Source: a virus
Lineage: Duplodnaviria; Caudoviricetes
Strand: one strand, 5' to 3'
IMG/VR virus record: IMGVR_UViG_3300014204_000114
Location: 64,001 to 128,000 of that record
DNA: 64,000 bases
The notes beneath the pieces were generated by a model. That model was given only the letters and a program-made list of their open reading frames with translations, was not told where the DNA came from and did no database searches. Positions 7,984 to 32,528 of the stretch are shown one piece after another. A program made the translations under genes and the position numbers. Within the stretch, counting starts at the first letter, position 1. Each line of letters starts with the position of its first letter.

Positions 7984-8754
7984 ATGAGGCGTGATATGAA
8001 AGAAAAGTTCAGAAATCATTGGGATTTTTATGGCAGTGGCGAGGAGGCTTGGATATCCAAGAAGTTTCTTCTTAAAATGTTAATTGCTGACAAGAAGCAA
8101 TGGAACAAGTTAAAGAAGGAAGGTAAGTGGGAGAATGTTGACCTGTCTTGGATAAGCATGTTCAGCTATATGAACACTCCGTTTTTATACTATGACAAAC
8201 TCTTCAAGATTGACTGTTGGGCAGATTTATCAGGGGCAGATTTAGAAAACGTTAGCTTTGAAGGATTAGACTTATATGGAGTTGACTTCAGAAAATGTAA
8301 AATCAGAAACACTAACTTTTCTGCCGCTAACTTAAGTGCTTGCAGGTTTTCCAATGAAAAGGGGCTTCTAACTAAAGAAGAATTTCTCAGCCAATTTGAA
8401 AAATTAAAGAACGGTTGGCTTGTTTACAAAGTCATAAAAGACGATGAGCGAGACGATAGAGACAGGGGCTGGAGAGAAGATCACAAGGAATATAAAAAAC
8501 ATTACAAGTGGGAAATTAAACAGAATTCAATTATTACTGGAAAGGTTGATCACAATAGATTTGCATATAAAGATAATGGTATTAATTTCGGCACGCTTAA
8601 ATATTGCAATGAATACTATAGACATTACTCTAAAGAAGATAAAGGAAACCTTTGGGCCTGCGAGCTTCCATTTGATGCCGATATATGTGTACCATATGCC
8701 TCCAGCGGAAACGCAAGAACAGACAAATTGAAGCTAATTACAGCCTTATCATAG
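7984..8754 (+). CDS. Pentapeptide-repeat-containing protein
   Basis: ADLSGADLENVSFEGLDLYGVDFRKCKIRNTNFSAANLSAC. Confidence 0.75.
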   Translation: MRRDMKEKFRNHWDFYGSGEEAWISKKFLLKMLIADKKQWNKLKKEGKWENVDLSWISMFSYMNTPFLYYDKLFKIDCWADLSGADLENVSFEGLDLYGVDFRKCKIRNTNFSAANLSACRFSNEKGLLTKEEFLSQFEKLKNGWLVYKVIKDDERDDRDRGWREDHKEYKKHYKWEIKQNSIITGKVDHNRFAYKDNGINFGTLKYCNEYYRHYSKEDKGNLWACELPFDADICVPYASSGNARTDKLKLITALS

Positions 8755-8772
8755 AAAGGACCAAAACGACTA

Positions 8773-9832
8773 ATGAGTAAAATCTCAAATTACGAATGGT
8801 CATACTTTGTGATAATGAAACAAATGGCTGATCGGGAGATGAAGAAGCCAGAGTGTTATTGCAATACCAGCCTGCTAAATTATCTATTTCCGCGGATCTC
8901 GCTTTGTACGTTTAGAGCGGAAAGACACGTATCTGGATCTCTATTCAGTACGATGAGAATGTACCTAGACCAACTAAGAGGTCATATAAGAAAAATAGAT
9001 GGAGAGCGAGAAAGAAGAATCGATTTATATTATGATTAAAAATCTAAAACATTAAATAAGAATCTTATAAACAGGAGAAAATATGAAAAGAATAATTAAA
9101 TCAGAAACAAATCCAGAAAAAATCGAAGACAATCTTGATGTACCTCTTACGAGAGAAGAGAAAGAGGCATTGATAAGGAAGCTTCAGAAGTCACTGGAAT
9201 TAAAGGAAACGACAGAAACAGAATCGGCTGACGTGAAAGAGCAGAGGCTTGTTCAATTCTGCGAGAAAGTAAAAGAGCTGTTAAAGAGCGAACAGTATAG
9301 CGGTAATGCGCGTACCGCATTTGATTTCCTCGGGGCCTTAAGTTCAAGAATTGATTTGATACTCTCTTCGATTTTAGGAGACAGTTCATTAAATAATGAG
9401 AATAAGCGGACATTTAGGCTCCATTTTTTACCTCGTATGAAACTATTTGGTATTGAATTCTCATACGAGGTTCGCGAATTTTTCGGATTGGATCCGGAAG
9501 ATAACGAAAATTTCGTCGAATTCTACTTCGAGAGCGATAATATCACATACGCGTACGCGGAATAAAGGAGAATAAAAATGAAAACGGAAAAGGAGTTAAG
9601 AAAAGAGATAAGAGAGTATAAGAAACAGCATAAAGCCGATATGGCAAACTACGAGGAAATAGCTTCGAAGGTAAGAGTTATCAAAGATTTCGTAGATGCT
9701 CATGTTAGTAACGACGAAATAGTCAGAAAGACTATGTTAGGTACTGGCGGAGACGTAGATAGGACGCTGAGCAATCTAAATCTGATCTATAAGAAGATTC
9801 AAAAACTAGCCGAAAAGGCAAAAGGAGAATAA
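8773..9832 (+). CDS. Three hypothetical proteins (8773-9039, 9083-9565, 9578-9832)
   Basis: SD-led ORFs with no recognisable motif. Confidence 0.6.
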
Positions 9833-9833
9833 A

Positions 9834-10475
9834 ATGAAGAAAATAATGTTTATACTTATAATTACTTTAATGACTGCGTGTATCGAAATCGAGGGAATCA
9901 CTCCTGAAGACGAAGATACAAAAAGAATTACTTCCGTTATCGATATCAGCGACGATGTAACTGATACTACAGACCCAGCTACAGATACAGTCTGGTTAGA
10001 CCCTGCGACGAATCTCATGTGGCAAAAATCGGGAAACAAATTTCCGGTATTATGGGAAGAAGCGATGACATATTGCGACGATGCAACTGACGGAGGTTTT
10101 AATAATTGGTACTTGCCTACAATAGACGAGTTAAGGACAACGATAATTGGACGCTCGGAAATAACGATAGGTGGCGAATGCCCTTATACAGATGGTCTTT
10201 CCGAATTCGATGTTTTCGATGATGATGGGATTTGTGATTTCAGACATGATGACCCGAATAGTTACCAGCCCAGTTATCTAAATTCTAAATTAGAGAAACC
10301 TGAACATGTTGCCGAAGATTATATTAGTTGGTCTTCGACAGTAATTATGAGGCATGGCGTAATAGCGGAACCGGATCCTGGGAAAATTGCTGTAGAATAT
10401 ATAACCGGTTCACTTCTTTTTATTCCGGCCATTGAGGATATGGCCTACGCACGATGCGTAAGGGAGGAAGAATGA
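9834..10475 (+). CDS. Lipoprotein with DUF1566 (Lcl-like) domain
   Basis: Lipobox LMTAC; D-x-x-T-NLMWQ, W.EA..YC, GGF..W.LPTIDEL, terminal ARCVR. Confidence 0.8.
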   Translation: MKKIMFILIITLMTACIEIEGITPEDEDTKRITSVIDISDDVTDTTDPATDTVWLDPATNLMWQKSGNKFPVLWEEAMTYCDDATDGGFNNWYLPTIDELRTTIIGRSEITIGGECPYTDGLSEFDVFDDDGICDFRHDDPNSYQPSYLNSKLEKPEHVAEDYISWSSTVIMRHGVIAEPDPGKIAVEYITGSLLFIPAIEDMAYARCVREEE

Positions 10476-10813
10476 AACTATTTATCCTGGAAGGTAATAG
10501 TTTCGACGTAATTGAAAATAGCACATGCCAGAACGAATGCTCCTTTTCGTGCCCTAAGCTTATAGTAACTGGCGAAGGAATGACTCAGAAAGCCAGATGC
10601 GAAAAGTTCAGCGGGGACTTTCTTACTGGGGACATTCTTGAAAGAAATCCAACTCTAGGATCAAACGCATTCTTCCGGCACGATGAATGTATGAGAAAAG
10701 CTCATACGGCAACTGAGACTGTCTATCTCTTAGGGAATTTGATAATGCAAATTACAAAACCAACGGAAGGCAATGAATTATTACATCTTCGACAAATAGT
10801 AGAAGGAGAATAA
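10472..10813 (+). CDS. Cys-containing hypothetical protein
   Basis: GGAGG SD before ATG 10472. Confidence 0.6.
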   Translation: MKLFILEGNSFDVIENSTCQNECSFSCPKLIVTGEGMTQKARCEKFSGDFLTGDILERNPTLGSNAFFRHDECMRKAHTATETVYLLGNLIMQITKPTEGNELLHLRQIVEGE

Positions 10814-10814
10814 T

Positions 10815-11195
10815 ATGTGCGGAAGTTTAAAACACGAAGGTACACTTCAGAAGATAGGCCAGGATATATTCTTTATCGATAAAAACACTGAGAAAAAAGG
10901 AATATGGGCCGGGCATGCAAGATCAGAGACTCTAAAAGAAAAATGGCTGGATAGGGGATGTATTCCAATAACTATAAAAGCCGATTCCTTTACAGAAAAG
11001 GATAAGGCTAAAAAGGATCACTTCTTTAAAGTCCCTGAAGGCTGGGCTATAGAAGGAGTATTAGTTACAAGACCTATAGACTTAGGTTCGTATATTCATG
11101 GCCCTGGCGAGGTATTAATCGTTACAAGGCCCGCGAAAGGAAAAGAGGCTAAAGTTCATGACAGATTTCCCAAATTTGTGAGGAGAGAAAAATGA
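10815..11195 (+). CDS. Minimal SRAP/YedK-like abasic-site-processing protein
   Basis: N-terminal MCG (Cys2), ARSET, C-terminal HDRFP. Confidence 0.6.
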   Translation: MCGSLKHEGTLQKIGQDIFFIDKNTEKKGIWAGHARSETLKEKWLDRGCIPITIKADSFTEKDKAKKDHFFKVPEGWAIEGVLVTRPIDLGSYIHGPGEVLIVTRPAKGKEAKVHDRFPKFVRREK

Positions 11196-12539
11196 CAAAA
11201 GAACAATTTGAAGCTATTTTTAAAGAACATTGCCCATATGATTCTTTTGAAAGTAAAAGTCAGATATTAAAAGGACTGAATATCATTGCCAAATATTTGC
11301 CTAATGTGGATATTGGAGCTGCGGAACATGACCAAGTATGGGCAAGTTGTGAGATAGACGAGCTTATAGCCGCGGGAATTATAGAGGAAGACGCTCAACG
11401 ATTATGGAAGTTAGGTTGGCTAATAAGCGAAGATGATGGCGGATTAACTCATTTCGCGTAAGGAGAATAAATTGAAAGAGCAGATCATTTGTGGGATTCT
11501 AATAGTAATCGCTTTTTTCATAGGAGCAGGAGTCTCTTCCAAGAAAGAAAAGATAGACGCAATAGAAGCTTCAGCCAAAAAAGTAGAATATTGCGCGAGC
11601 GTTAATCTCGATGCGTACAAATGCGCGGAATGGATCAGATCGGGTAAAAGCGCAGAAGAATTCTTCGGCAAGAATACCCTAAACCCCTGATTTAGAATAT
11701 ATAGAATCTATTTATAGAATTATTTATTTATCAACTTACTCATATTCCTATAGTCATAAGTTCGAGAATTAATTAATAAAAAATTCCATTTGATTATTTT
11801 CTTAATTACGTATACAATATTCGAAACAGAAAGGGCAAATAAAGGCGGGATTATGAAAAAGATAACTAAAACTGGCAGAACTATAATTATATATACTTTC
11901 CATCGGGATACCACAGAGACATTATGGGTAGGTGCTGAAAGTCTCGAAGAAGCCATAAGATTCAGAAAAGGCGACGCTCCCCATGGATATTGGGGGCATA
12001 CACTACGAGAAGTCCGATCCGAAAAAGAGGAAGTCAGGGCGTCTGATCCCTATTGGATTATTAAATGTCCAGATAAAAGCTGCTTCGGTAAAGGTAAGGA
12101 CTGTACTAAGTGCGATATAGCAGAAGTTAAGAAAGTAGAAATAACCGAAAAACAAAAACGATATGCTACTCGAGGATCGGTGATTCAAGAGGAAAGAGCT
12201 AAAGCCAGAGTCAAACATAATACTTTTATAAACTATCAGGAAAGACAGGATAAATTCAGAGAATATCTTGAAGAAAAATTAGCGAATCCCTTACACCATC
12301 GTCCGTATGAATATACGATGCCTAAGACAATGGCAGGTTGGCTGAGAGATATAATAAAGCAGACTTTAAGAGATTTTATCTCTGTCGAGGAAAGGTTTGA
12401 TGCTATTCCTGAGGATTTGCTGTTCGCCTATGAAATATTCTTTGATGATTGCATCGAAATACATTTCAACGAGGACGAATGGCTTCAGGAATGGTTCGGA
12501 ACCACGTTTCTACAGACAATAAAATTAGGATGCAAATAG
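11192..12539 (+). CDS. Hypothetical proteins 11192-11461, 11472-11690 (membrane) and 11853-12539
   Basis: ORF track; likely true start of the last gene at ATG 11853. Confidence 0.6.
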
Positions 12540-21534: not shown

Positions 21535-23562
21535 ATGTCGATGTATCCTTTTACGTTATTCTTTGAGAAAACATTAAGCGATGAAGATTTCGCAAGCATT
21601 AGTTCACATTTAGAAAGTCTTGACCTTCCTGTTATGCCGTTGATGCTAGAAGAGGGATTAAGCGGTTATGTCATTAATATAACTGACGCCGCGAAAGAAG
21701 AAAAATTAAAAAGAATACTTACTAGTATGGGAGGCTTTGCTAAGTTGTCAGGGATGGCTTACGATGGCCTAATGAGGCTACCTTATGCTTTTGACGCGTT
21801 GATTAAAAGTCAGCTTACGACTCCTGCAGTTCCTGCTATGGAAGACGCGTCCGAAACAAGAAGAAGTTCAGAAGGATGTAACGATGCTCCATGCAGAGGA
21901 TGCGACGCAGAAGAGTGCGAGAATAGAGACGAAGATTACGATGAATATTATGATAATGATAGAGAAAACGAAACCCATAATCACGACGATGATTGCATAT
22001 GTAGATTCTGTGACGAGCCGAATTGCGAAGATAGAGATGAAGAGTTTTTGTGTGGGGGGACTTTAGAAGAATGTGGAGAATGTGATAAAGATTGCCAGTA
22101 CAGGCAAAATGTATTGGCGACTCCTGCCCATCTAACTCCCGAAACCAGAGCTGAAGTAATAGAAGCATTACAAATAGAAATCCCAATAGACGATACTACG
22201 AGAACAGTAAGGGATGGATATTCCGATTTTGCGACAAAGAGCTATAAAAGATATTATAATCCATCCTTAGAATGCGTGAGCCCCACAGGTAATATAGGAT
22301 TATTGCCTTATAGGATGGCTTCCAGATCTCATACGAAAGACGGGCTTAATTTATATTCGAAAGCTATAGCTAAATTGTCCGACGGTGACGGGCCAATGCT
22401 CGTATTTCTTACGAAGTATAGCGATAACGGAGAGGCTCATTGGGAACAGTTGAAGATTATAACAGAAGCTGTCTTAGATGTTATAGAGCCTGCAAAATTA
22501 AACAGATTTAAAACAATATATATATCGGAAACTCATAATTCTGCTCCTATCACTCCGATGGCTATAGACGATAATCTGTATATATGGCTGTGGGCCGATA
22601 TAAAATCCTGTTCCAGCGCAGAGAGGCTAAAATCTCCCGTATATGGGATGACATTAAGAGATTGCGGGATGACAGACCACTTGTCGATATACGATCATAA
22701 TTTGTATGATTATGTGAATTATAGCGACCGATCCGAGGCAATTGCAGGCGTGTCCGGGAATAACATTTATACATTTTTTGACTTGATGCATCCGGACCCC
22801 GAAGGGATTAAAAAGCTTGAATGGAGAAAATCGTATTACGAATTATGGAAAAAGCTTATTCTTGATATGTCCAGCAATATGATGTTAACTCCGGAAGAGA
22901 TATCAAATAAAGCCCAAAAGCAGTTTATCTCTTCTTATAAGAAGTCTATGATCGATTCTATAAACAATTTGAAGAGTGAGATAAGCAGCATATCGCAAAT
23001 AGTCCAGTCTTATGAACGGGATTTTAAAGAGAAGTATTCCGAGATGAAGCAAAAAGAGGATATGCTTTATACTATCGAGGCTAATAAAGACGAAGACAAA
23101 CTGGATTTGAGAGCCCTTGAAATTATAGATATGATAAAAAAGTCTAAGCTTACCAAAAGTGTAGAGTTTGATAAAAGTCAATATCTAATAGTAAATACGA
23201 AAAACATTTTCTGCACCGATCCAAGACAAGGCAACGTCTATGAGCTTGGCGAATTTAAGATTAAGATTCCGTTCAACGGAAAAACTTCAAGCGATATAAG
23301 AATACTGAATCAAACAAGGACGGTGGATGGTTATTGGCACAATCATAATGCCCCGCATGTTGATAATAACGGGAAGCCTTGTTGGGGTTCCGTTGCTATA
23401 GATATGACTAAGGTTTTAACAGAAAAGAAATTCTACGAAGTTTATATGATGTGCCTGGCCTTTTTAGAGACTGTAAACCCGGCTGATTCGGCTGGAGCAT
23501 ACATAGAAAGATGGCCTAAAGTCGAAAGTAAAACTGAAGAAAAAACAGCTGAAGTCGCTTAA
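21535..23562 (+). CDS. Large protein with Cys-rich repeats, coiled coil and C-terminal prokaryotic E2 (ubiquitin-conjugating)-like domain, copy 1
   Basis: ELGEFKIKI...APHVDNNGKPCWGS (PH-x6-7-C E2 signature); adjacent to JAB, ThiF and Ubl genes. Confidence 0.7.
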   Translation: MSMYPFTLFFEKTLSDEDFASISSHLESLDLPVMPLMLEEGLSGYVINITDAAKEEKLKRILTSMGGFAKLSGMAYDGLMRLPYAFDALIKSQLTTPAVPAMEDASETRRSSEGCNDAPCRGCDAEECENRDEDYDEYYDNDRENETHNHDDDCICRFCDEPNCEDRDEEFLCGGTLEECGECDKDCQYRQNVLATPAHLTPETRAEVIEALQIEIPIDDTTRTVRDGYSDFATKSYKRYYNPSLECVSPTGNIGLLPYRMASRSHTKDGLNLYSKAIAKLSDGDGPMLVFLTKYSDNGEAHWEQLKIITEAVLDVIEPAKLNRFKTIYISETHNSAPITPMAIDDNLYIWLWADIKSCSSAERLKSPVYGMTLRDCGMTDHLSIYDHNLYDYVNYSDRSEAIAGVSGNNIYTFFDLMHPDPEGIKKLEWRKSYYELWKKLILDMSSNMMLTPEEISNKAQKQFISSYKKSMIDSINNLKSEISSISQIVQSYERDFKEKYSEMKQKEDMLYTIEANKDEDKLDLRALEIIDMIKKSKLTKSVEFDKSQYLIVNTKNIFCTDPRQGNVYELGEFKIKIPFNGKTSSDIRILNQTRTVDGYWHNHNAPHVDNNGKPCWGSVAIDMTKVLTEKKFYEVYMMCLAFLETVNPADSAGAYIERWPKVESKTEEKTAEVA

Positions 23563-23576
23563 GAAAGGAGTTTAAA

Positions 23577-24233
23577 TTGGACACAATCAGACCAGCAGAG
23601 TGCAGGAATAGGGTTATATTCAAAGGAGAGATCCCTAAAGTCACTATCTCTCCTGAAGTCATAGACGATTTGTCAATTCTGAAACACCAGGTTGACGGAG
23701 AATTTATGTTCGGAATAATGGCGGAATATGTCGATAACGAATTTAAGATCCAGGGGGTGTATATGTTCCCCCAGACGGTTAATTACGCCGGAGTCAAACC
23801 TAAGACCGAAACTACGATAGAGGAACTATTCTTAAGCATGCCTAATGTCCTTGGAATAGGAATCTGCGAAGAAAAAATGGAAGAATGCGAAAAGGATCTT
23901 AAGGATCATATTGAAAAATTAACCGAAAATATCCCGGTCCCATTCGTTTCAATTTATCTGAATTTTAAAGGCGAATGTCAGGTAAACGCTCATAACTTCG
24001 ACATGTGGGAATTTAAGGATCTTAAGTGGAAATTCCCGACAGTTGTAGATGCTGAAGAAAGAAGAGCTTACTGGGAAAATCAAATTAAAGAGCATGTAGG
24101 GTCCTTCGCTTATCACTATAGCTCGAATCCAATTGGAGGACCAGCATCATGCGGGGCGTCTGCGGAAGCGTATAAAAATGCATTCCCCGGAGCTGCAGAT
24201 GATGAATGTCCTACAGGATTTTATGGGATTTAA
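23577..24233 (+). CDS. JAB/MPN-like protein, predicted catalytically inactive
   Basis: Aligns with the N-terminus of 30382-31503 (I.P....D..I....  E ... F.I..V..P.Q) but lacks HxH...D. Confidence 0.55.
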   Translation: MDTIRPAECRNRVIFKGEIPKVTISPEVIDDLSILKHQVDGEFMFGIMAEYVDNEFKIQGVYMFPQTVNYAGVKPKTETTIEELFLSMPNVLGIGICEEKMEECEKDLKDHIEKLTENIPVPFVSIYLNFKGECQVNAHNFDMWEFKDLKWKFPTVVDAEERRAYWENQIKEHVGSFAYHYSSNPIGGPASCGASAEAYKNAFPGAADDECPTGFYGI

Positions 24234-24242
24234 GGAGAGAAA

Positions 24243-24926
24243 ATGATTGAGACTATGAGACATGTCGCCGTAATTGATCTTGAGCACTCTACAGCCAAAG
24301 ACACAGCTATACATGTGATAGGCTGCGGAGCTTTAGGGTCAAGAGTAGCTTTGGGATTAGCCAAATTAGGCGTTAGTAATATGCATTTATGGGACTTCGA
24401 CAAGATCGAGAGTCATAATATAGCGAATCAGGCATACGGGATTTTGGATGTAGGAAGATATAAAGTAGAAGCTCTCGCAGGGCTGATAGCGAGACAGACC
24501 GGCTTAAAGACCGTGCCTCACCCGGAAAAAGTCGTGAATCAACATTTGTTTGGTTTTATTTTTCTTTTACCTGACTCTATGGAGTCAAGAAGGGAGATTT
24601 GGGATGAGAGCATTAAGTGGAAAGCTGTCGCCTTATTTGAAGGCAGGATGGGCGTATCTGAAGGAAGGGTTTATTACGTTAATCCAAAGGATCCTGTTCA
24701 CATTAGTAAATGGGAGTCTACCCTTTGTCTTGACTCCGAAGCTGAAGATTCTGTTTGCGGTTCTCACATTGCTGTTGGACCTACAGCGGAATTTATCTCC
24801 GCGCTTATGCAATGGCAGTTCATTAAGTATATAAACTCTTTGGAGAAGCCTAGAAAAGTGGAAAATGAGATTATAGCGTATGTAGATCCGCCGCTATATC
24901 TGATGAATTGCTGGAATAATCAATAG
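24243..24926 (+). CDS. ThiF/E1-like adenylyltransferase, copy 1
   Basis: VIGCGALGS, DFDKIESHNIANQ, G..KVEA, candidate catalytic Cys in SVCG. Confidence 0.9.
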   Translation: MIETMRHVAVIDLEHSTAKDTAIHVIGCGALGSRVALGLAKLGVSNMHLWDFDKIESHNIANQAYGILDVGRYKVEALAGLIARQTGLKTVPHPEKVVNQHLFGFIFLLPDSMESRREIWDESIKWKAVALFEGRMGVSEGRVYYVNPKDPVHISKWESTLCLDSEAEDSVCGSHIAVGPTAEFISALMQWQFIKYINSLEKPRKVENEIIAYVDPPLYLMNCWNNQ

Positions 24927-24958
24927 TAAACTAATAACCAATATAAAGGAGAATTAGA

Positions 24959-25384
24959 ATGGTAACAGTAAAAATGGCAAAGCTTCCTGGTGAGTCGAAG
25001 GAATATCTTTTCGAAGACGGTACCACGTTAGCTAAGGCGCTTGCTACGGCAGGTCTTGATTCCACTGGATATCAGGTCCGCGTATCCGGCACGCTCGTTG
25101 AAGGCGCTTTCGATGAGTTGGAAGTTGAGGATGGCGACAGCGTAATGCTTGTCAAGCCGATCAAGGGCGCTCAGGACTACATCGAAGTCAAGATTGCCAA
25201 GCTTCCTGGCGAACTTAAAGCGTTTTGCCTCAACGGTGACCGCAAGGTTCGGACTCTTATCGCTACCGCAGGATTGACCCTCGGTACCTGCAAAATCCGC
25301 ATCAACGGATTGGAAGGTGATATTGACGATGAGCTGGAAGACGGGGATACGGTAGTCCTCGTAAGTAATATCAAGGGTGCGTAA
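24959..25384 (+). CDS. Tandem two-domain ubiquitin-like (ThiS/MoaD beta-grasp) protein
   Basis: Two ~70-aa repeats VK.AKLPGE.K...L.DGD.V.LV..IKGA; codon usage distinct from neighbours. Confidence 0.85.
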   Translation: MVTVKMAKLPGESKEYLFEDGTTLAKALATAGLDSTGYQVRVSGTLVEGAFDELEVEDGDSVMLVKPIKGAQDYIEVKIAKLPGELKAFCLNGDRKVRTLIATAGLTLGTCKIRINGLEGDIDDELEDGDTVVLVSNIKGA

Positions 25385-25392
25385 TTCCCGAC

Positions 25393-25415
25393 TGTTTTGT
25401 TTTGTTTTGTTTTTT
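25393..25415 (+). repeat. (GTTTT)n short tandem repeat
   Basis: tgttttgttttgttttgtttttt directly after the Ubl stop codon. Confidence 0.6.
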
Positions 25416-25433
25416 ACTGAATTAAAATATAAG

Positions 25434-25459
25434 TACAGGGGAAGTTCGCTTCCCCTGTA
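25434..25459 (+). terminator. UUCG-capped stem-loop (terminator or mRNA stabiliser) after the Ubl gene
   Basis: tacaggggaag-TTCG-cttcccctgta, perfect 11-bp stem; only a weak U tract follows. Confidence 0.65.
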
Positions 25460-25482
25460 TCTTAAATATAAAAGGAGGATCC

Positions 25483-25755
25483 GTGGAGGCAAACGAGACA
25501 GTCTTGGAAGAATGTAAGGACTTAAAGATAGTAGAGGAGCTCAAGGCGCGTGTGGAAGCTAATGAGAAGACATTAAAGATAATAAATGAGGGGATGAAAA
25601 ACCTCATGGTTATTTGCATGAAAGTATCAGCTTCTACAGGAGCCTTGGTGAGTGTACTGAGCGAGGAAGAGTTGGAAATTTTCAAAAAGACATACGACAA
25701 AATAATAGAATCTTCCGCGAGCAGTTTAAGTTCGGAAAAGCGCGATAACGCGTGA
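25483..25755 (+). CDS. Hypothetical protein whose stop codon is supplied by the IS right end
   Basis: AGGAGG SD; TGA lies within the GTGA element end. Confidence 0.6.
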   Translation: MEANETVLEECKDLKIVEELKARVEANEKTLKIINEGMKNLMVICMKVSASTGALVSVLSEEELEIFKKTYDKIIESSASSLSSEKRDNA

Positions 25756-26912
25756 TTATTCTATTACGAAAAGTAATAGTTTTTAGGCTGAAGCCAAAGA
25801 CTGTAACCCCAGTCTTAAAATATTTATCGCTGCGTTGTGGTCTCTATCAAGAGATAATCCGCAGCAAGGACAATTATGAGTTCGATCAGAAAGTTTTTTA
25901 AGGACTTTATGACCACAAGAAGAACAAATTTGGGATGTATAAGCGGGGTTGACCAGGATCAATCGTTTATCGGCGCATTCTGCCTTATAAGCAATGAGTC
26001 TGGTAAATTGTCCCCAAGCTACATCAGAAATACTTTTGTTAATGCAAGTATGAGTATGGACCATTTCGTTAATAGACAAATCCTCCATACAGATCGTGTC
26101 GAAAGACTTTACTATACTATTACTCTGTTGATGGGCAAAGTTATTGCGTTTATTAGAGATTCTTTCATGGATCTTAGCTACAACTTTCCTGGCTTTAGCT
26201 CTCTCAGGAGTGCCTTTATTAAGCTTAGAAAATTTTCTTTGAGCTTTAGCCAAAGATTTTTCTTCGTGTTTAAAGAATCTGGGGTTATCAATCTTGACAC
26301 CGTCAGAGAGCGTAGCGAAAGATTCAAGACCCACATCTATACCGACAGATCTGCCGGTTTTAAGAAGTGGATTTTTCTCGACAATACAAGAAAAAGTGAC
26401 ATACCACTTACCAGTAGTAGACTTTTTTATACAGCAAGTCTTAATTTGACCTGTGATATTCCTATGGAGTTTGATTTTGATAGTGCCGATTTTAGAGAGT
26501 TTGAGCCCCTGTTCAGTAATCTTAAAACCGAACTGAGGGAAAGAGAAAGAGTGGTACCTGTTAAACCCTTTAAATCTTGGATAACCCGGTTTATCTCCAG
26601 CCTTAATCCTTCTAAAGAATGCTTTGAAAGAAAGATCGAGCCTAACAAGAACATCCTGAAGGACTTGAGAATGAATATTTTTAAGACTACTTCTCAGCTC
26701 TTTAGTCTCTACAAGAAAAGAGTTTTGGGCATAATAACTCAAACTTTTATTTTCGATTTCCCAACATTTTTTACGCTGTTCAAGAAAGTAATTATACAGC
26801 CAGCGGCATTCTTCAAGCCACATATTCATAATGTGAGTTTGTTTGCTCGTTGGATATATACGGAATTTATATGCTTTAAGCATAGTTATAGTATGCGCTT
26901 AAAAAACAAGAT
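25752..26912 (-). mobile_element. tnpB-only IS200/IS605 (IS1341-like) element
   Basis: Right end hairpin ctattac-ttttc-gtaatag followed by aataaTCAC (- strand); left boundary inferred at TTGAC 26913-26917; no tnpA. Confidence 0.75.
25783..26883 (-). CDS. tnpB: RNA-guided endonuclease TnpB
   Basis: AYKFRIYP, PGYPRFK, GIDVG / MEDL / DRDHNAA RuvC residues intact, zinc ribbon. Confidence 0.95.
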   Translation of the reverse strand: MLKAYKFRIYPTSKQTHIMNMWLEECRWLYNYFLEQRKKCWEIENKSLSYYAQNSFLVETKELRSSLKNIHSQVLQDVLVRLDLSFKAFFRRIKAGDKPGYPRFKGFNRYHSFSFPQFGFKITEQGLKLSKIGTIKIKLHRNITGQIKTCCIKKSTTGKWYVTFSCIVEKNPLLKTGRSVGIDVGLESFATLSDGVKIDNPRFFKHEEKSLAKAQRKFSKLNKGTPERAKARKVVAKIHERISNKRNNFAHQQSNSIVKSFDTICMEDLSINEMVHTHTCINKSISDVAWGQFTRLIAYKAECADKRLILVNPAYTSQICSSCGHKVLKKLSDRTHNCPCCGLSLDRDHNAAINILRLGLQSLASA

Positions 26913-28760: not shown

Positions 28761-30359
28761 ATGTATCTTAATCTTGAAACTCTCGTAAACGAACTAGGAA
28801 GAACGTGGGGATTTTACGTAAAAATATCAAGTGAAAGTTTCGGCACTACTATCAAAACTAGAAATAAACTTCATGACAAAGGTATCATATCAACTGATTT
28901 CTATCATAGCGAAGGAGATTACGGGCTTTTGATGGACGCCGAGAATTTGATTAAGCTTGAGACTCTTTATGGAAGAGCGGAAGTGACAGGACTCGTATGT
29001 CCTCATTATGAGAATATGATAGAAGTCACTTTAAGCTCTCCTGTCCTTGATGCTATATTGCCCGAACAAACAGAATTAATAGTAGATTTACTAACGGCAG
29101 ATATCCTACCTAAAAAGAAAAAGCCTAAGAAGAAAACCGAAGATGATATAACAGGAACTGCCTCTTCAGAGTTAGAGTTTTTACTAAAAGATGAAGAAGT
29201 TGTGTCTCTCCTAAAGAATATAACGAAATCGCTAAAGCTTAATGAGTTTTTAGTAAGCAGAACTATCATAGACTGTTCTATCGAAGACAGATTTACAGTC
29301 CTCATAGGATCTTATCAGGATGATTCCCCAATGGGTTATAATAAATTCTCGTGCGGATCTTTTGATAAGATAAAAAGCCCTTCCAGTATGTATCTGTATC
29401 TTGATACGGGATACGATAGAATTTACGATGTTGTATTCAAGGACTACGCGGGAGTTCCATTCGCAGGTTCTCATAGAGAAATCCACGCGTTATACCTGTT
29501 TTGGAACATATTTGATCAGGTAGAGCGTATTGATAGTAGAAACGAAGCTAAGCTGAATGATTTTAGAAAGAAATACATCACTGAAATACTTAAAAGATTC
29601 GATTTATACTTGACTGACCAAAAAGAGTATGCTAAGAAATATGAGAATAATGGTAAGTCTCTGAAGATGTCAGAATCGGCAGTAAAAGATATTTATAATA
29701 AGGCGGGGAAGACCGAACTTAAGAAAGCTGAATTAATAGTTAAATATGGAACTCAGATTATAGATAAAATTTATTTACAGTTACACAAATACGAACAAAT
29801 GGTGATAGCCGCAGGCGAAAAGGTAAAAATGTTCAGAGAAAATGATAGTGAAGAAAAATTTACACAGAGATATAGGAAAGAATTAGAATTAGTTAATAAG
29901 AATTCAAAAGTACTCAATGCTGCTATTTCTGAAAATCAATTAATAATTCATACGGATATGTTATATTGTGAAAATCCGCAGACTCATAAAGTTCACGAAA
30001 TAGGCAAATTTATCATAATGTTCGAGTTATCGTTAATGACCGGAGGAGATAACGAAGGTCTAGTAAAGTGGATTAATGTAACTCATAAAATAAAGGGATT
30101 TAGCAATCAGTTTATGAACGCTCCTCATATATTTAATGATGGACATGCATGTCTCGGATCAATAGCGGGAACATTTTCTAAATTATTAAATAATCATGAG
30201 ATAGCATCTGCTGTTGATTTAGCAATCCAATTTGTGGAAAGCGTAAATCCGGTGGATGCGGCAGGATCATTTATAGGGAATTGGCCGATAGTAGAAACGG
30301 AGAAGAAGAATGAAGAAACTAGGGAAGAGACGGAAGCAGAACTCGCAGAAACAGCGTAA
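28761..30359 (+). CDS. Coiled-coil protein with C-terminal prokaryotic E2-like domain, copy 2
   Basis: EIGKFII...APHIFNDGHACLGS...VNPVDAAG..I.NWP, clearly paralogous to the C-terminus of 21535-23562. Confidence 0.7.
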   Translation: MYLNLETLVNELGRTWGFYVKISSESFGTTIKTRNKLHDKGIISTDFYHSEGDYGLLMDAENLIKLETLYGRAEVTGLVCPHYENMIEVTLSSPVLDAILPEQTELIVDLLTADILPKKKKPKKKTEDDITGTASSELEFLLKDEEVVSLLKNITKSLKLNEFLVSRTIIDCSIEDRFTVLIGSYQDDSPMGYNKFSCGSFDKIKSPSSMYLYLDTGYDRIYDVVFKDYAGVPFAGSHREIHALYLFWNIFDQVERIDSRNEAKLNDFRKKYITEILKRFDLYLTDQKEYAKKYENNGKSLKMSESAVKDIYNKAGKTELKKAELIVKYGTQIIDKIYLQLHKYEQMVIAAGEKVKMFRENDSEEKFTQRYRKELELVNKNSKVLNAAISENQLIIHTDMLYCENPQTHKVHEIGKFIIMFELSLMTGGDNEGLVKWINVTHKIKGFSNQFMNAPHIFNDGHACLGSIAGTFSKLLNNHEIASAVDLAIQFVESVNPVDAAGSFIGNWPIVETEKKNEETREETEAELAETA

Positions 30360-30381
30360 GCCAAGAAAAAGGAGGACAAAA

Positions 30382-31503
30382 ATGGTAGATCATGCGCCGC
30401 ACAATTTCGAACCCAAGTTTAAATACGATCAGGTATTTAAAATTTTTATAACTCCGCAGGCTATGGCGGACATGTCTTTAATAGTCGATATATGTACTGA
30501 AGAAGTAGGATGGATGGGATATGTAGAAAGAAGAGGAAACGATTTTATAGTATATGATGTTTTCGTCCCTAAACAGAAAGCTTCATCCGTATTATGCGAA
30601 TTAGACTTTACTGCACTGGCTGAAGTAGGAGAAGCTTTAATACAAACTCCGGACGGAATAGCGAAATATAACCAAATGAGATTCTGGGGCCATTCCCATC
30701 ATACGATGGGGACAAGTCCTTCAGGTCAGGACGATATCCAATTAAGAGAATTCGACGCGTGCGAATGGTTTATCAGAGGAATCCTGAATAAGCATGGAAG
30801 AATGGAGTTGACTTTATACTTCTTTAAGTTAGGGTTAGAGATAAGAGACGTCCCGTGGCAAATATATTATGAGCCCAATCCGTCCAAAGTCGAATATTGG
30901 GAAAGCGAAATAGAGAAGAATGTCGAAGTGACTAAGTACGTGGCTGAGACAAGATGGAACGGGACCGAATGGCATAAGGAATGGAATCAGAACTGGAGAA
31001 CAAATTACAAAAAAGACAAAATCGACCAAAGAGATATAGGATTCAGAGCGCCTAATAAGACCGCACGAAACATTCACGAATACTTCAAAGAGAAAGTTCG
31101 GGAAGATAATAAGGATGTACTTAGCGATATAGAAAAGAATACGGAAGAGGCTTTAAGAGCAGCCGCGGATATAGCCATGGGCAGAAAGGCAAAAAGCAGT
31201 AGTATATCCTGTAAAGTCGAAGTTATGGATGCGTCCGTAGGTAAAATTTTGCACAAAACCGATTGTAGTGTCCCGGATGATGGATGGGACATAGAGATGC
31301 TGGTTGACACTTTCTATAGTCATTTGTCTCAAGCGATGTACAATGACGGATTATCTTTTATAAGAAAGATACAAGGTATAGGATGGGAACCGGTTAAGGG
31401 CGGATATAAGATTGAAGATAAGGACGTGCTTGTAATAATCATAGAGGATTTATTAATGAATGCAAAATTAATCGAGGATATTAAAACCGAGGCTGCCTTA
31501 TGA
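30382..31503 (+). CDS. JAB/MPN+ metalloprotease (Ubl-processing/deconjugating type)
   Basis: EVGW ... WGHSHHTMGTSPSGQD (E, HxH, S..D); AGGAGG SD before ATG 30382. Confidence 0.85.
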   Translation: MVDHAPHNFEPKFKYDQVFKIFITPQAMADMSLIVDICTEEVGWMGYVERRGNDFIVYDVFVPKQKASSVLCELDFTALAEVGEALIQTPDGIAKYNQMRFWGHSHHTMGTSPSGQDDIQLREFDACEWFIRGILNKHGRMELTLYFFKLGLEIRDVPWQIYYEPNPSKVEYWESEIEKNVEVTKYVAETRWNGTEWHKEWNQNWRTNYKKDKIDQRDIGFRAPNKTARNIHEYFKEKVREDNKDVLSDIEKNTEEALRAAADIAMGRKAKSSSISCKVEVMDASVGKILHKTDCSVPDDGWDIEMLVDTFYSHLSQAMYNDGLSFIRKIQGIGWEPVKGGYKIEDKDVLVIIIEDLLMNAKLIEDIKTEAAL

Positions 31504-32159
31504 TAGAAATCCTGAGACATATGGAAGTATTCAATCCTGATAATTTTACGGACAACGTACATATTATCGGCTGCGGATCCATAGGCTCTAATATAGCTTT
31601 GAGTATGGCTAAATTAGGTATCCCGGGGGATCAGATAACAGCATATGATTTCGATAAGGTAGAGGAGCATAATATTGCGAATCAGGCATACGCCCTAAAA
31701 CACATAGGCTGGTCTAAAGTAGATGCTTTATTCGATCAAATCAAATATTATACAGGAGAGGAAATAGACATTCGGGAAGAGAGAGTAGAAGATAAAGTAA
31801 GGCTAAATGGAATAGTCTTTCTGGTTACAGATACGATGAAATCCCGGCGGGAAATATTTAATTCCTGTATCAAGATGAAAATGGCTGTTAAATTGATGAT
31901 CGAAGTCAGAATGGATGCGGCTGAAGGGAGAGTCTACACTATTAACCCGATGTCTTATTCCGAAACGAAGTTCTGGGAAGACGTCTCGCAGTACACTGAC
32001 GAACAGGCCGTAACCTCAGCGTGCGGACATACCACTACTGTGGGTTCTACAGTCGGAGTCCTATCCAACTTAGCAGTTTGGCAGTTTATAAACTGGTTTA
32101 ACAAAAAACCTTTGAAAAATGAATTGTTCATAGGCCTTGAAAATATGGCCTTAAATTAA
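31500..32159 (+). CDS. ThiF/E1-like adenylyltransferase, copy 2
   Basis: IIGCGSIGS, DFDKVEEHNIANQ, SACG. Confidence 0.9.
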   Translation: MIEILRHMEVFNPDNFTDNVHIIGCGSIGSNIALSMAKLGIPGDQITAYDFDKVEEHNIANQAYALKHIGWSKVDALFDQIKYYTGEEIDIREERVEDKVRLNGIVFLVTDTMKSRREIFNSCIKMKMAVKLMIEVRMDAAEGRVYTINPMSYSETKFWEDVSQYTDEQAVTSACGHTTTVGSTVGVLSNLAVWQFINWFNKKPLKNELFIGLENMALN

Positions 32160-32186: not shown

Positions 32187-32528
32187 ATGGCAGACAAACA
32201 GTGGAGCTTTAGTAAAGCGCAAGTGTGGCTGAATAAGGCTAGCGACAGCAAGAAGCTCGGTAATGGTACTATGGTTATGAACGACACAATCGTTTTGACC
32301 TTCAACATCTTTGTGGGAAAAGATGACAGTATATTCGCCGCGCCGCCGAGTTTCAGCTATGAGCCTAAAGAAGGCGGAGAGAAGAAATACAAGGACCACT
32401 TCTATTTCCTCGTTCCTGAAGCTAGAGTAGACTTTAATGCGGCTGCATGCGAAGCATACGAAACCGCAAAGAAGACTCCCGCTGCGCCTCCCAGCCGTCC
32501 CGGAACAGCAAGAACCTTTAAGAGGTAA
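32187..32528 (+). CDS. SpoVG-like nucleic-acid-binding protein
   Basis: Pattern of beta strands, G....FAAPPS, Y.D, terminal helix ending EAY matches SpoVG. Confidence 0.65.
   Translation: MADKQWSFSKAQVWLNKASDSKKLGNGTMVMNDTIVLTFNIFVGKDDSIFAAPPSFSYEPKEGGEKKYKDHFYFLVPEARVDFNAAACEAYETAKKTPAAPPSRPGTARTFKR

Follow-up and report, generated by a model that had tools for sequence, protein, structure and literature searches.

Why does a tailed phage encode two ubiquitin-like units head to tail in one small gene, and are these units released as separate tags? The question is raised by IMG/VR virus record IMGVR_UViG_3300014204_000114 (Duplodnaviria; Caudoviricetes), which is 187,794 bp long and was judged 99% complete. 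The window, the whole stretch of DNA analyzed here, comprises 64,000 nucleotides (bases 64001–128000 of the record). Coordinates follow the window numbering, and "genome" refers to the whole 187.8-kb record. The gene in question, di-Ubl, encodes a protein of two ubiquitin-like (Ubl) units. In the reading that we favor, and consider probable, it is a polyubiquitin-like precursor of two different ThiS-type modifiers that is processed by a JAMM peptidase for conjugation. To the same degree, di-Ubl likely provides the tag of a ubiquitin-like conjugation set carried by the phage. Comparison of the family's sequences favors the release of separate units over an undivided tag like ISG15.

The two halves of the protein (residues 1–71 and 72–141) were homologous, with 44% identity (E 9e-17). 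Unit 1 ends in VKPIKGA, directly followed by QDY of unit 2, and the protein ends in VSNIKGA before the stop codon. The initial annotation, which had read two beta-grasp units with an IKGA end on each, was correct in this respect. The IKGA codons are ATC AAG GGC GCT in unit 1 and ATC AAG GGT GCG in unit 2, and these differing synonymous codons indicate that the repeat is maintained as protein sequence and does not reflect a recent copying of the DNA. Unit 1 matched the Pfam family ThiS (PF02597) with 26.7 bits against a curated cut-off of 22.5. Because the AlphaFold2 (AF2) prediction from the single sequence was poor (pLDDT 46), a model based on an alignment of 54 two-unit homologues was used instead. 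This model (pLDDT 93.1) displayed the beta-beta-alpha-beta-beta pattern twice, as two beta-grasp units linked by approximately 8 residues. Its best PDB matches in Foldseek were linear di-ubiquitin, ISG15, and FAT10 (E ~1e-7), and the structural matches in the viral and ESM Atlas sets were ubiquitin, polyubiquitin, and ThiS/SAMP2 clusters, mostly of tailed phages. As in polyubiquitin, complete units stand head to tail with an activation tail on each (residues 68–71 and 138–141). The units are not copies of one modifier, given their identity and their assignment to two types (A and B), and both end in K-G-A rather than in the C-terminal Gly-Gly of ThiS/MoaD-type proteins.

The conservation of the tail was examined in the wider family. 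When 1.84 billion representatives were searched exhaustively with HMMER, 294 proteins were detected at E<=1e-3, including 76 at E<=1e-10, and the best 150 of the 294 hits were analyzed. One, two, three, and four units were carried by 31, 84, 26, and 6 proteins, respectively. Among 294 units, the Gly column (column 67) contained Gly at all 280 filled positions, and the column after it (column 68) contained Asn in 236, Ala in 22, and Gly in 21 units. The two columns before the Gly hold I or V and then K, so that the tail reads [IV]-K-G-[N>A>G], and its four columns rank among the most conserved of the family. Ala at the last position is rare (22/280 units) and is present in both anciently diverged units of di-Ubl. 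A canonical G-G was found in 21 units (7%), several of which carry extra residues (GGVA, GGLL, GGRG). In the 90 members whose last unit has its tail near the C-terminus, the protein ended at the N/A/G column in 38 (42%), one residue beyond it in 31, and 2–4 residues beyond it in 18, and none of the 90 ended at K-G.

The sequence after the first hairpin of the unit separates the two types, with approximately EEGTT in type A and LNGDRxV in type B. When the nearest 12 units in other proteins were collected, 11 of those nearest to unit 1 were type A and 11 of those nearest to unit 2 were type B. Outside the tail, each unit was 41–49% identical to its own type in other proteins and 38% identical to its partner. 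The A/B split is therefore older than the present phage, and the earlier proposal that the two units are different modifiers was borne out. The A+B architecture was found in 11 representatives, and both types also occur as single-unit genes beside full cassettes.

The internal tail bears on the release of both units. In 34 proteins whose units are less than 50% identical, G followed by N, A, or G was retained in 38 of 43 internal units. Four of the five heterotypic proteins with a non-Asn last residue have the identical residue in all units, which is expected if one enzyme reads every site. In some members the tail is found on an internal unit and nowhere else, and a tail-less beta-grasp-like or unrelated domain of 130–200 residues comes after it; this arrangement is sensible only if the internal site is used. 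These patterns favor the view that the end of the internal unit is under the same selection as the terminal end, which would fit the release of both units. One or two KGN-ended units before a tail-less C-terminal domain of 130–200 residues are found in P0110, P0085, P0119, P0127, P0132, P0144, and P0145 and in P0059, P0070, P0079, P0083, P0096, P0117, and P0131. This structure recalls ubiquitin-fusion precursor genes.

An antisense open reading frame (ORF) of 154 aa at 25028–25492 (− strand) overlaps the di-Ubl gene and exceeds its length, and naive longest-ORF gene calling takes this spurious frame over di-Ubl. It was rejected as a real gene, because only the + strand ORF has homologues, a ribosome-binding site, and a match to Pfam ThiS. 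The di-Ubl ORF has a GC content of 0.507 and a GC content at third codon positions (GC3) of 0.535, compared to a genome GC content of 0.39 and a mean GC3 of 0.364 (standard deviation 0.061). ATA and AGA, the commonest Ile and Arg codons of the genome, are absent from it, and AAG accounts for 9 of its 12 Lys codons. The codon adaptation index was referred to two major-head-protein genes, the gene of the single-stranded DNA-binding protein (SSB), and an unannotated neighboring gene, three of which were confirmed by PHROG. By this capsid/SSB-type reference, di-Ubl ranked 10th among 227 ORFs. The codon usage had been described as unlike that of the AT-rich surroundings, which holds, and its likeness to capsid and SSB genes makes high expression of di-Ubl plausible. 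The sequencing runs listed for this DNA were landfill and groundwater metagenomes, three of which may represent the source sample, and none of those listed was an RNA run.

The UUCG hairpin that had been noticed after the gene was also confirmed. The 101-nt hairpin region folded with −27.5 kcal/mol (z −3.75), which none of 200 shuffles equaled, and it matched no Rfam family at threshold. On the + strand its T-run is weak, and the − strand offers a better one, so that the hairpin may work in both directions. TGTTT repeats (tgttttgttttgttttgttttt, 25393–25418) occupy the space between the di-Ubl stop codon and the hairpin.

The genes around di-Ubl form two cassettes. Cassette 1 (21535–25384) consists of a divergent E2-like protein, a degenerate JAB homologue, the E1 enzyme E1a, and di-Ubl, and cassette 2 (28761–32159) consists of an E2-like protein, an intact JAMM peptidase, and E1b, with no Ubl. 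The degenerate homologue aligned to the JAB family with an hhalign probability of 95.8% (E 7e-9, 178 columns), and the HxH...S..D region corresponded to GICEE...CEKD. The cassette 2 peptidase contains the JAMM motif E...HxH x7 S xx D (HSHHTMGTSPSGQD), whose residues E41, H104, S105, H106, S114, and D117 were invariant in 46 homologues; its match to Pfam Prok-JAB was weak and below the cut-off (E 0.027). The intact JAMM motif is confined to cassette 2, and the metal ligands are gone from the homologue in cassette 1. A predicted complex of JAMM residues 1–200 with di-Ubl and Zn scored 0.33, as did one control, and was not used as evidence.

E1a and E1b were 43–44% identical to each other, and either was 40–52% identical to the E1s of other phages. 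Since they are no closer to each other than to those E1s, the second cassette is not a recent duplication. E1a, E1b, and the E1s of two relatives (L002 and L009) read HNI(A/P)NQ at a site where the ThiF/MoeB/E1 motif SNLxRQ, with a conserved Arg, would be expected. If this alignment is right, the Arg would be replaced by Asn throughout this E1 family.

In the large proteins, the columns A-P-H-x(4)-G-x(2)-C-x-G were invariant in four E2-like homologues. The ESM Atlas model of E2b residues 370–516 reached a TM score of 0.50 to the Prok-E2_D cluster and 0.49 to the UQ_con cluster. Profile searches of Pfam and PDB with the E2-like domain returned chance-level hits only, with no sequence-level match, and a third homologue search with this domain added four unannotated proteins. 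The motif and the model moderately support the designation E2-like. Within residues ~110–190, E2a contains an insert that is acidic and rich in Cys, with many D/E and CxxC-type spacing; this insert has no counterpart in E2b and may bind metal. The Xanthomonas phage homologue of E2a has similarly Cys-rich ends.

No further Ubl unit was detected in the genome by profile search. A 113-aa ORF at 32187–32528 (+ strand) sits at the Ubl position after E1b, with a GC3 of 0.535 like that of di-Ubl. It had no Pfam, NCBIfam, or PHROG match and was rejected as a hidden Ubl (hhalign probability 0.6%).

In the pathway that we propose, the lone intact JAMM peptidase would cut the I-K-G-A tail of each unit and thereby produce two separate modifiers. 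E1a and/or E1b would adenylate the exposed C-terminus, and the modifier would move to the large E2-like proteins, onto the conserved Cys of their APH...G..C[LW]G motif; the long N-terminal parts of these proteins probably select the targets. We infer the cleavage, its exact bond (between G and A or after A), the activation, the thioester transfer, and the conjugation. The positions of all features are listed in Table 1.

Table 1. Features of the two cassettes and of the di-Ubl gene (window coordinates).
Feature	Position	Strand	Basis or remark
E2a-like large protein, 675 aa, C-terminal APHVDNNGKPCWG	21535–23562	+	E2b paralogue, E 3e-24; A-P-H...G..C.G columns invariant
Degenerate JAB/MPN homologue, 218 aa, without metal ligands	23577–24233	+	hhalign against the JAB family
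E1a, small ThiF-type adenylating enzyme, 227 aa	24243–24926	+	Pfam ThiF 65.9 bits, E 3.8e-18
Shine-Dalgarno box AAGGAG	24946–24951	+	7 nt 5' of the ATG; read from sequence
di-Ubl gene, 141 aa, ATG start, TAA stop	24959–25384	+	ORF list
Unit 1, aa 1–71, type A ('FEDGTT')	24959–25171	+	Profile match E 9.6e-30
Internal tail I-K-G-A, aa 68–71, candidate processing/activation site	25160–25171	+	Sequence and family columns 65–68
Unit 2, aa 72–141, type B ('LNGDRK')	25172–25381	+	Profile match E 6.2e-28
Terminal tail I-K-G-A, aa 138–141, stop codon immediately after	25370–25381	+	Sequence
11-bp hairpin, UUCG loop; terminator-like or 3' stabilizer	25434–25459	+	Folding
TnpB-type transposase gene, between the cassettes, just downstream of di-Ubl and hairpin	25783–26883	−	phrog_506, E 3.6e-113
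E2b-like large protein, 532 aa, C-terminal APHIFNDGHACLG	28761–30359	+	ESM Atlas model of residues 370–516
Intact JAMM/JAB peptidase, 373 aa from ATG 30382; upstream ATG 30310 also open	30382–31503	+	Metal motif
E1b, second small ThiF-type enzyme, 219 aa	31500–32159	+	Pfam ThiF 67.4 bits

The cassette was also found in relatives, where the usual order is a large protein with the APH-x4-G-x2-C-[LW]-G motif, the JAMM peptidase, the small ThiF-type E1, and the Ubl gene. This order recurs in L002, L009, L014, L019, and L020, and the settings are phage contigs of ~150–190 kb and, once, a group of cellular genes. L002, a contig of 7.5 kb, carries an A+B di-Ubl beside one cassette, and L009 (IMGVR_UViG_3300005936_000001), a complete 185-kb phage with terminal repeats, carries an A+A di-Ubl and one E1. 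Single units are encoded by L014 (188.9-kb contig; type A, ending IQGN-stop), L020 (152.7-kb contig; type B), and L019 (742-kb contig, 8583–11813; type B, ending IRGN-stop). The neighbors of the L019 cassette are genes for RecG, malic enzyme, endonuclease V, and pilus ATPases, and its JAB protein was attributed by one source to a metagenome-assembled genome of Candidatus Paceibacterota. The cassette is therefore not confined to phages.

Two side observations concern these relatives. In L009, a group I intron at 8417–8671 (Rfam RF00028, 58.9 bits, cut-off 50, E 2e-14) lies in the JAMM peptidase gene and splits the HxH metal motif, the upstream ORF ending in ...WGH and the downstream ORF beginning with MSH...SGQD. 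In Xanthomonas phage PhiXhv-12 (PV764601.1; L006, 3310–6684), and also in Erwinia phage Ep032 and others, a related pair of genes directly adjoins DNA topoisomerase genes. These cultured phages have genomes of 227 kb, and the pair consists of an 892-aa Cys-rich protein with IHPH...SLCLGS and a small E1 that is 31.5% identical to E1a and annotated as 'thiamine biosynthesis protein'. No recognizable Ubl or JAMM gene was present beside this pair.

Other searches for relatives returned little. A word-indexed homologue search with di-Ubl returned only di-Ubl itself, and neither tblastn with di-Ubl and with the E2-like protein nor blastn with the cassette gave a match among GenBank phages. A scan of IMG/VR from a single protein returned nothing, and a scan with a narrower alignment, the first alignment being too variable to use, returned two loci.

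The position of the cut and the fate of the released ends allow more than one explanation. According to the initial annotation, cleavage falls between K-G and A. The JAB peptidase BilC cleaves BilA at the bond between G97 and A98, one residue from the end (PMC10557695), and a Ubl-E2 pre-protein is cleaved after the conserved G229 by the JAB domain of BubCD (PMC11601596); every characterized bacterial JAB pre-processing cut lies directly after a conserved Gly (PMC10557695, PMC11601596). By analogy, each unit would be cut by the cassette 2 peptidase just after its invariant Gly. The Gly is invariant and the residue after it variable, and on chemical grounds an Asn-terminal acyl-adenylate or thioester would tend to cyclize. 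Alternatively, the Ala at the N/A/G position could itself be the mature activated residue, in which case the peptidase would cut after A71, unit 2 would be born mature and untrimmed, and no cap would exist. In the Pfam ThiS alignment the last aligned residue is 70, at model position 75 of 76, and the TIGR01683 alignment ends at position 63 of 64, so that G70 corresponds to the next-to-last Gly of ThiS. The C-terminal ends counted above, at the N/A/G column and never at K-G, and the G-G units with extra residues point the same way. In CBASS CD-NTases the activated residue is a terminal Gly or Ala, and the E1 relative MccB works on a terminal Asn, which also speaks for an activated Ala. The spacing between the conserved D-G-D and the end presumably matches that of ThiS/MoaD sequences and is taken as a lead only. 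We give this alternative a real chance that falls clearly short of even. Provided that cleavage occurs, a cut between Gly and Ala is mildly preferred, and a cut after Ala retains a substantial minority share. Thus the proposed cut position keeps its BilC precedent and is weakened by the ThiS profiles and the observed ends. The same division applies to the idea that an Ala cap keeps the precursor inactive: the restriction of the intact JAMM to cassette 2 is in its favor, whereas the Ala may be the mature terminal residue, and the idea would also depend on the timing of expression. A bolder version has the family as the prokaryotic/viral counterpart of polyubiquitin, with the Asn after the Gly (Ala here) as the activated residue, an E1 that may act via a succinimide-type intermediate as in MccB, and two tags that modify host or phage proteins during infection; we consider this version improbable as a whole.

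The remaining explanations concern the use of the two units. They might stay joined and act through the C-terminal tail as one 15-kDa tag, like ISG15 or FAT10, with the internal IKGA serving folding or binding. ISG15 and FAT10 are among the best structural matches, Ubls that have as many as three beta-grasp domains and remain uncleaved occur in Bil and Bub (PMC10557695, PMC11601603), and a few family members have tail-less N-terminal units. This explanation nevertheless appears quite unlikely in view of the full tail on most internal units of divergent proteins, the one to four units per protein with near-identical repeats in many members, the occurrence of both types as single-unit genes beside complete cassettes, and the members with an internal tail only. 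The initial annotation had further suggested one unit for each E1/E2 pair. The genome does contain two E1s, two E2-like proteins, and exactly two Ubl units of two old types, and the ORF after E1b is not a Ubl. However, the complete one-E1 phage L009 carries a di-Ubl, the A+B di-Ubl of L002 adjoins one cassette (on a short contig), three- and four-unit genes exist, and the rare Ala common to both units points to shared enzymes. In addition, the E1 tree was star-like and unresolved, with neither E1 paired with a Ubl type. Such a division is not the rule in the family and is rather unlikely as an explanation, but it may still hold in the present genome, which has two of everything. A pair of sulfur carriers that provide a thiocarboxylate for a cofactor or thionucleoside, with no protein tagging, is very unlikely. 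ThiS and ThiF are the only curated family matches, and GenBank phage relatives of the E1 carry the thiamine annotation mentioned above; yet the tail is not G-G, and the Ubl has a conserved context of tandem units, a JAMM peptidase, and an E2-like partner with a Cys. Furthermore, rhodanese, ThiG, MoaE, and PP-loop enzymes had no match in the genome, compared with matches in 11–14 of 14 control genomes; their absence from the genome makes the carrier role unlikely, although host enzymes could serve.

Some results weigh against the favored reading of a split two-tag precursor. ThiS homology puts the invariant Gly at the next-to-last position, which makes the cut position ambiguous. Five internal units of divergent family members lack the tail, so that unsplit, ISG15-like forms also occur in the family. 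The E2-like assignment draws on a motif and on TM scores of ~0.5 to Atlas models, and has no Pfam or PDB sequence match.

The set was compared with known systems. In Bil, Ubl, E2, JAB/JAMM, and E1 are encoded together as here, and the Ubl is cut at the same G-A arrangement (PMC10557695). Bil Ubls may have several beta-grasp domains and are not described with an activation tail on each (PMC10557695). Bil E1s have the architecture IAD-AAD-CYS (PMC11601596), whereas in the E1s of 227 and 219 aa found here one ThiF domain makes up nearly the whole protein. Bil is a host defense and the present set is phage-borne. PADLOC defense models had no match for the Ubl, JAB, pseudo-JAB, or E2-like proteins, and only ~70 residues of the CBASS E1-E2 models were matched by the E1s. 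Bub (6E/DUF6527) likewise has a JAB cut after a conserved Gly, a minimal homodimer-type E1, which in BubCD lacks a catalytic Cys domain (PMC11601596), and Ubls with between one and three beta-grasp domains (PMC11601596, PMC11601603). Bub differs by its Ubl-E2 and JAB-E1 fusions, its Ser-based E2, and its DUF6527 protease, whereas the present set has separate genes and a Cys in its E2-like motif; moreover, no splitting is described for the three-domain Bub Ubls, which assemble as units.

Eukaryotic polyubiquitin (yeast UBI4, human UBB/UBC) likewise consists of head-to-tail units with an activation tail on each and a variable copy number. Extra residues after the last unit also occur in many family members, and a dedicated peptidase is expected to free the monomers. 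In contrast to polyubiquitin, the units here are ThiS-like, with 9–16% identity to ubiquitin-family structures in structural alignment; the tail is K-G-[N/A/G] instead of R-G-G; the units are divergent instead of identical, with linkers of 2–4 residues between units; and the cleavage is predicted. In 2006, Iyer, Burroughs, and Aravind drew attention to tandemly repeated Ubls in E1/E2/JAB operons of prokaryotes (PMC1779556). Their example (mlr6139 type) belongs to a different Ubl family in bacterial operons, and the K-G-N/A/G family, the phage setting, and a tail on each unit were not described there. PRTRC (TIGR03735–03738) is also a mobile-element set with ThiF-family, JAB-like, and small Ubl-like proteins. 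E1a and E1b scored 27.3 and 43.2 bits against TIGR03736 (cut-off 144.75), and the Ubl and JAB matched no PRTRC model.

A full-text literature search returned no paper on a phage-borne E2-like/JAB/E1 set with a K-G-N/A/G poly-Ubl, while Bil and Bub already offer examples of multi-domain Ubls (PMC10557695, PMC11601603). To date, ubiquitin-like conjugation in bacteria (CBASS Cap2/Cap3, Bil, and Bub) has been studied as anti-phage host defense. The ~300 representative relatives indicate that a compact set of their own is present in large uncultured phages and in at least one genome of cellular appearance. The tag gene of this set has the construction of a eukaryotic polyubiquitin gene, with one to four units and a conserved activation tail on each. 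The targets in the phage could be host defenses, the host proteome, or the phage's own proteins. The K-G-N/A/G tail also raises the question of which residue an E1 can activate. If the cleavage holds true, the A+B precursor would offer a simple system for studying the sorting of two tags by a single peptidase and two E1/E2 sets, and the polyprotein-style production of ubiquitin-like tags would not be a eukaryotic invention.

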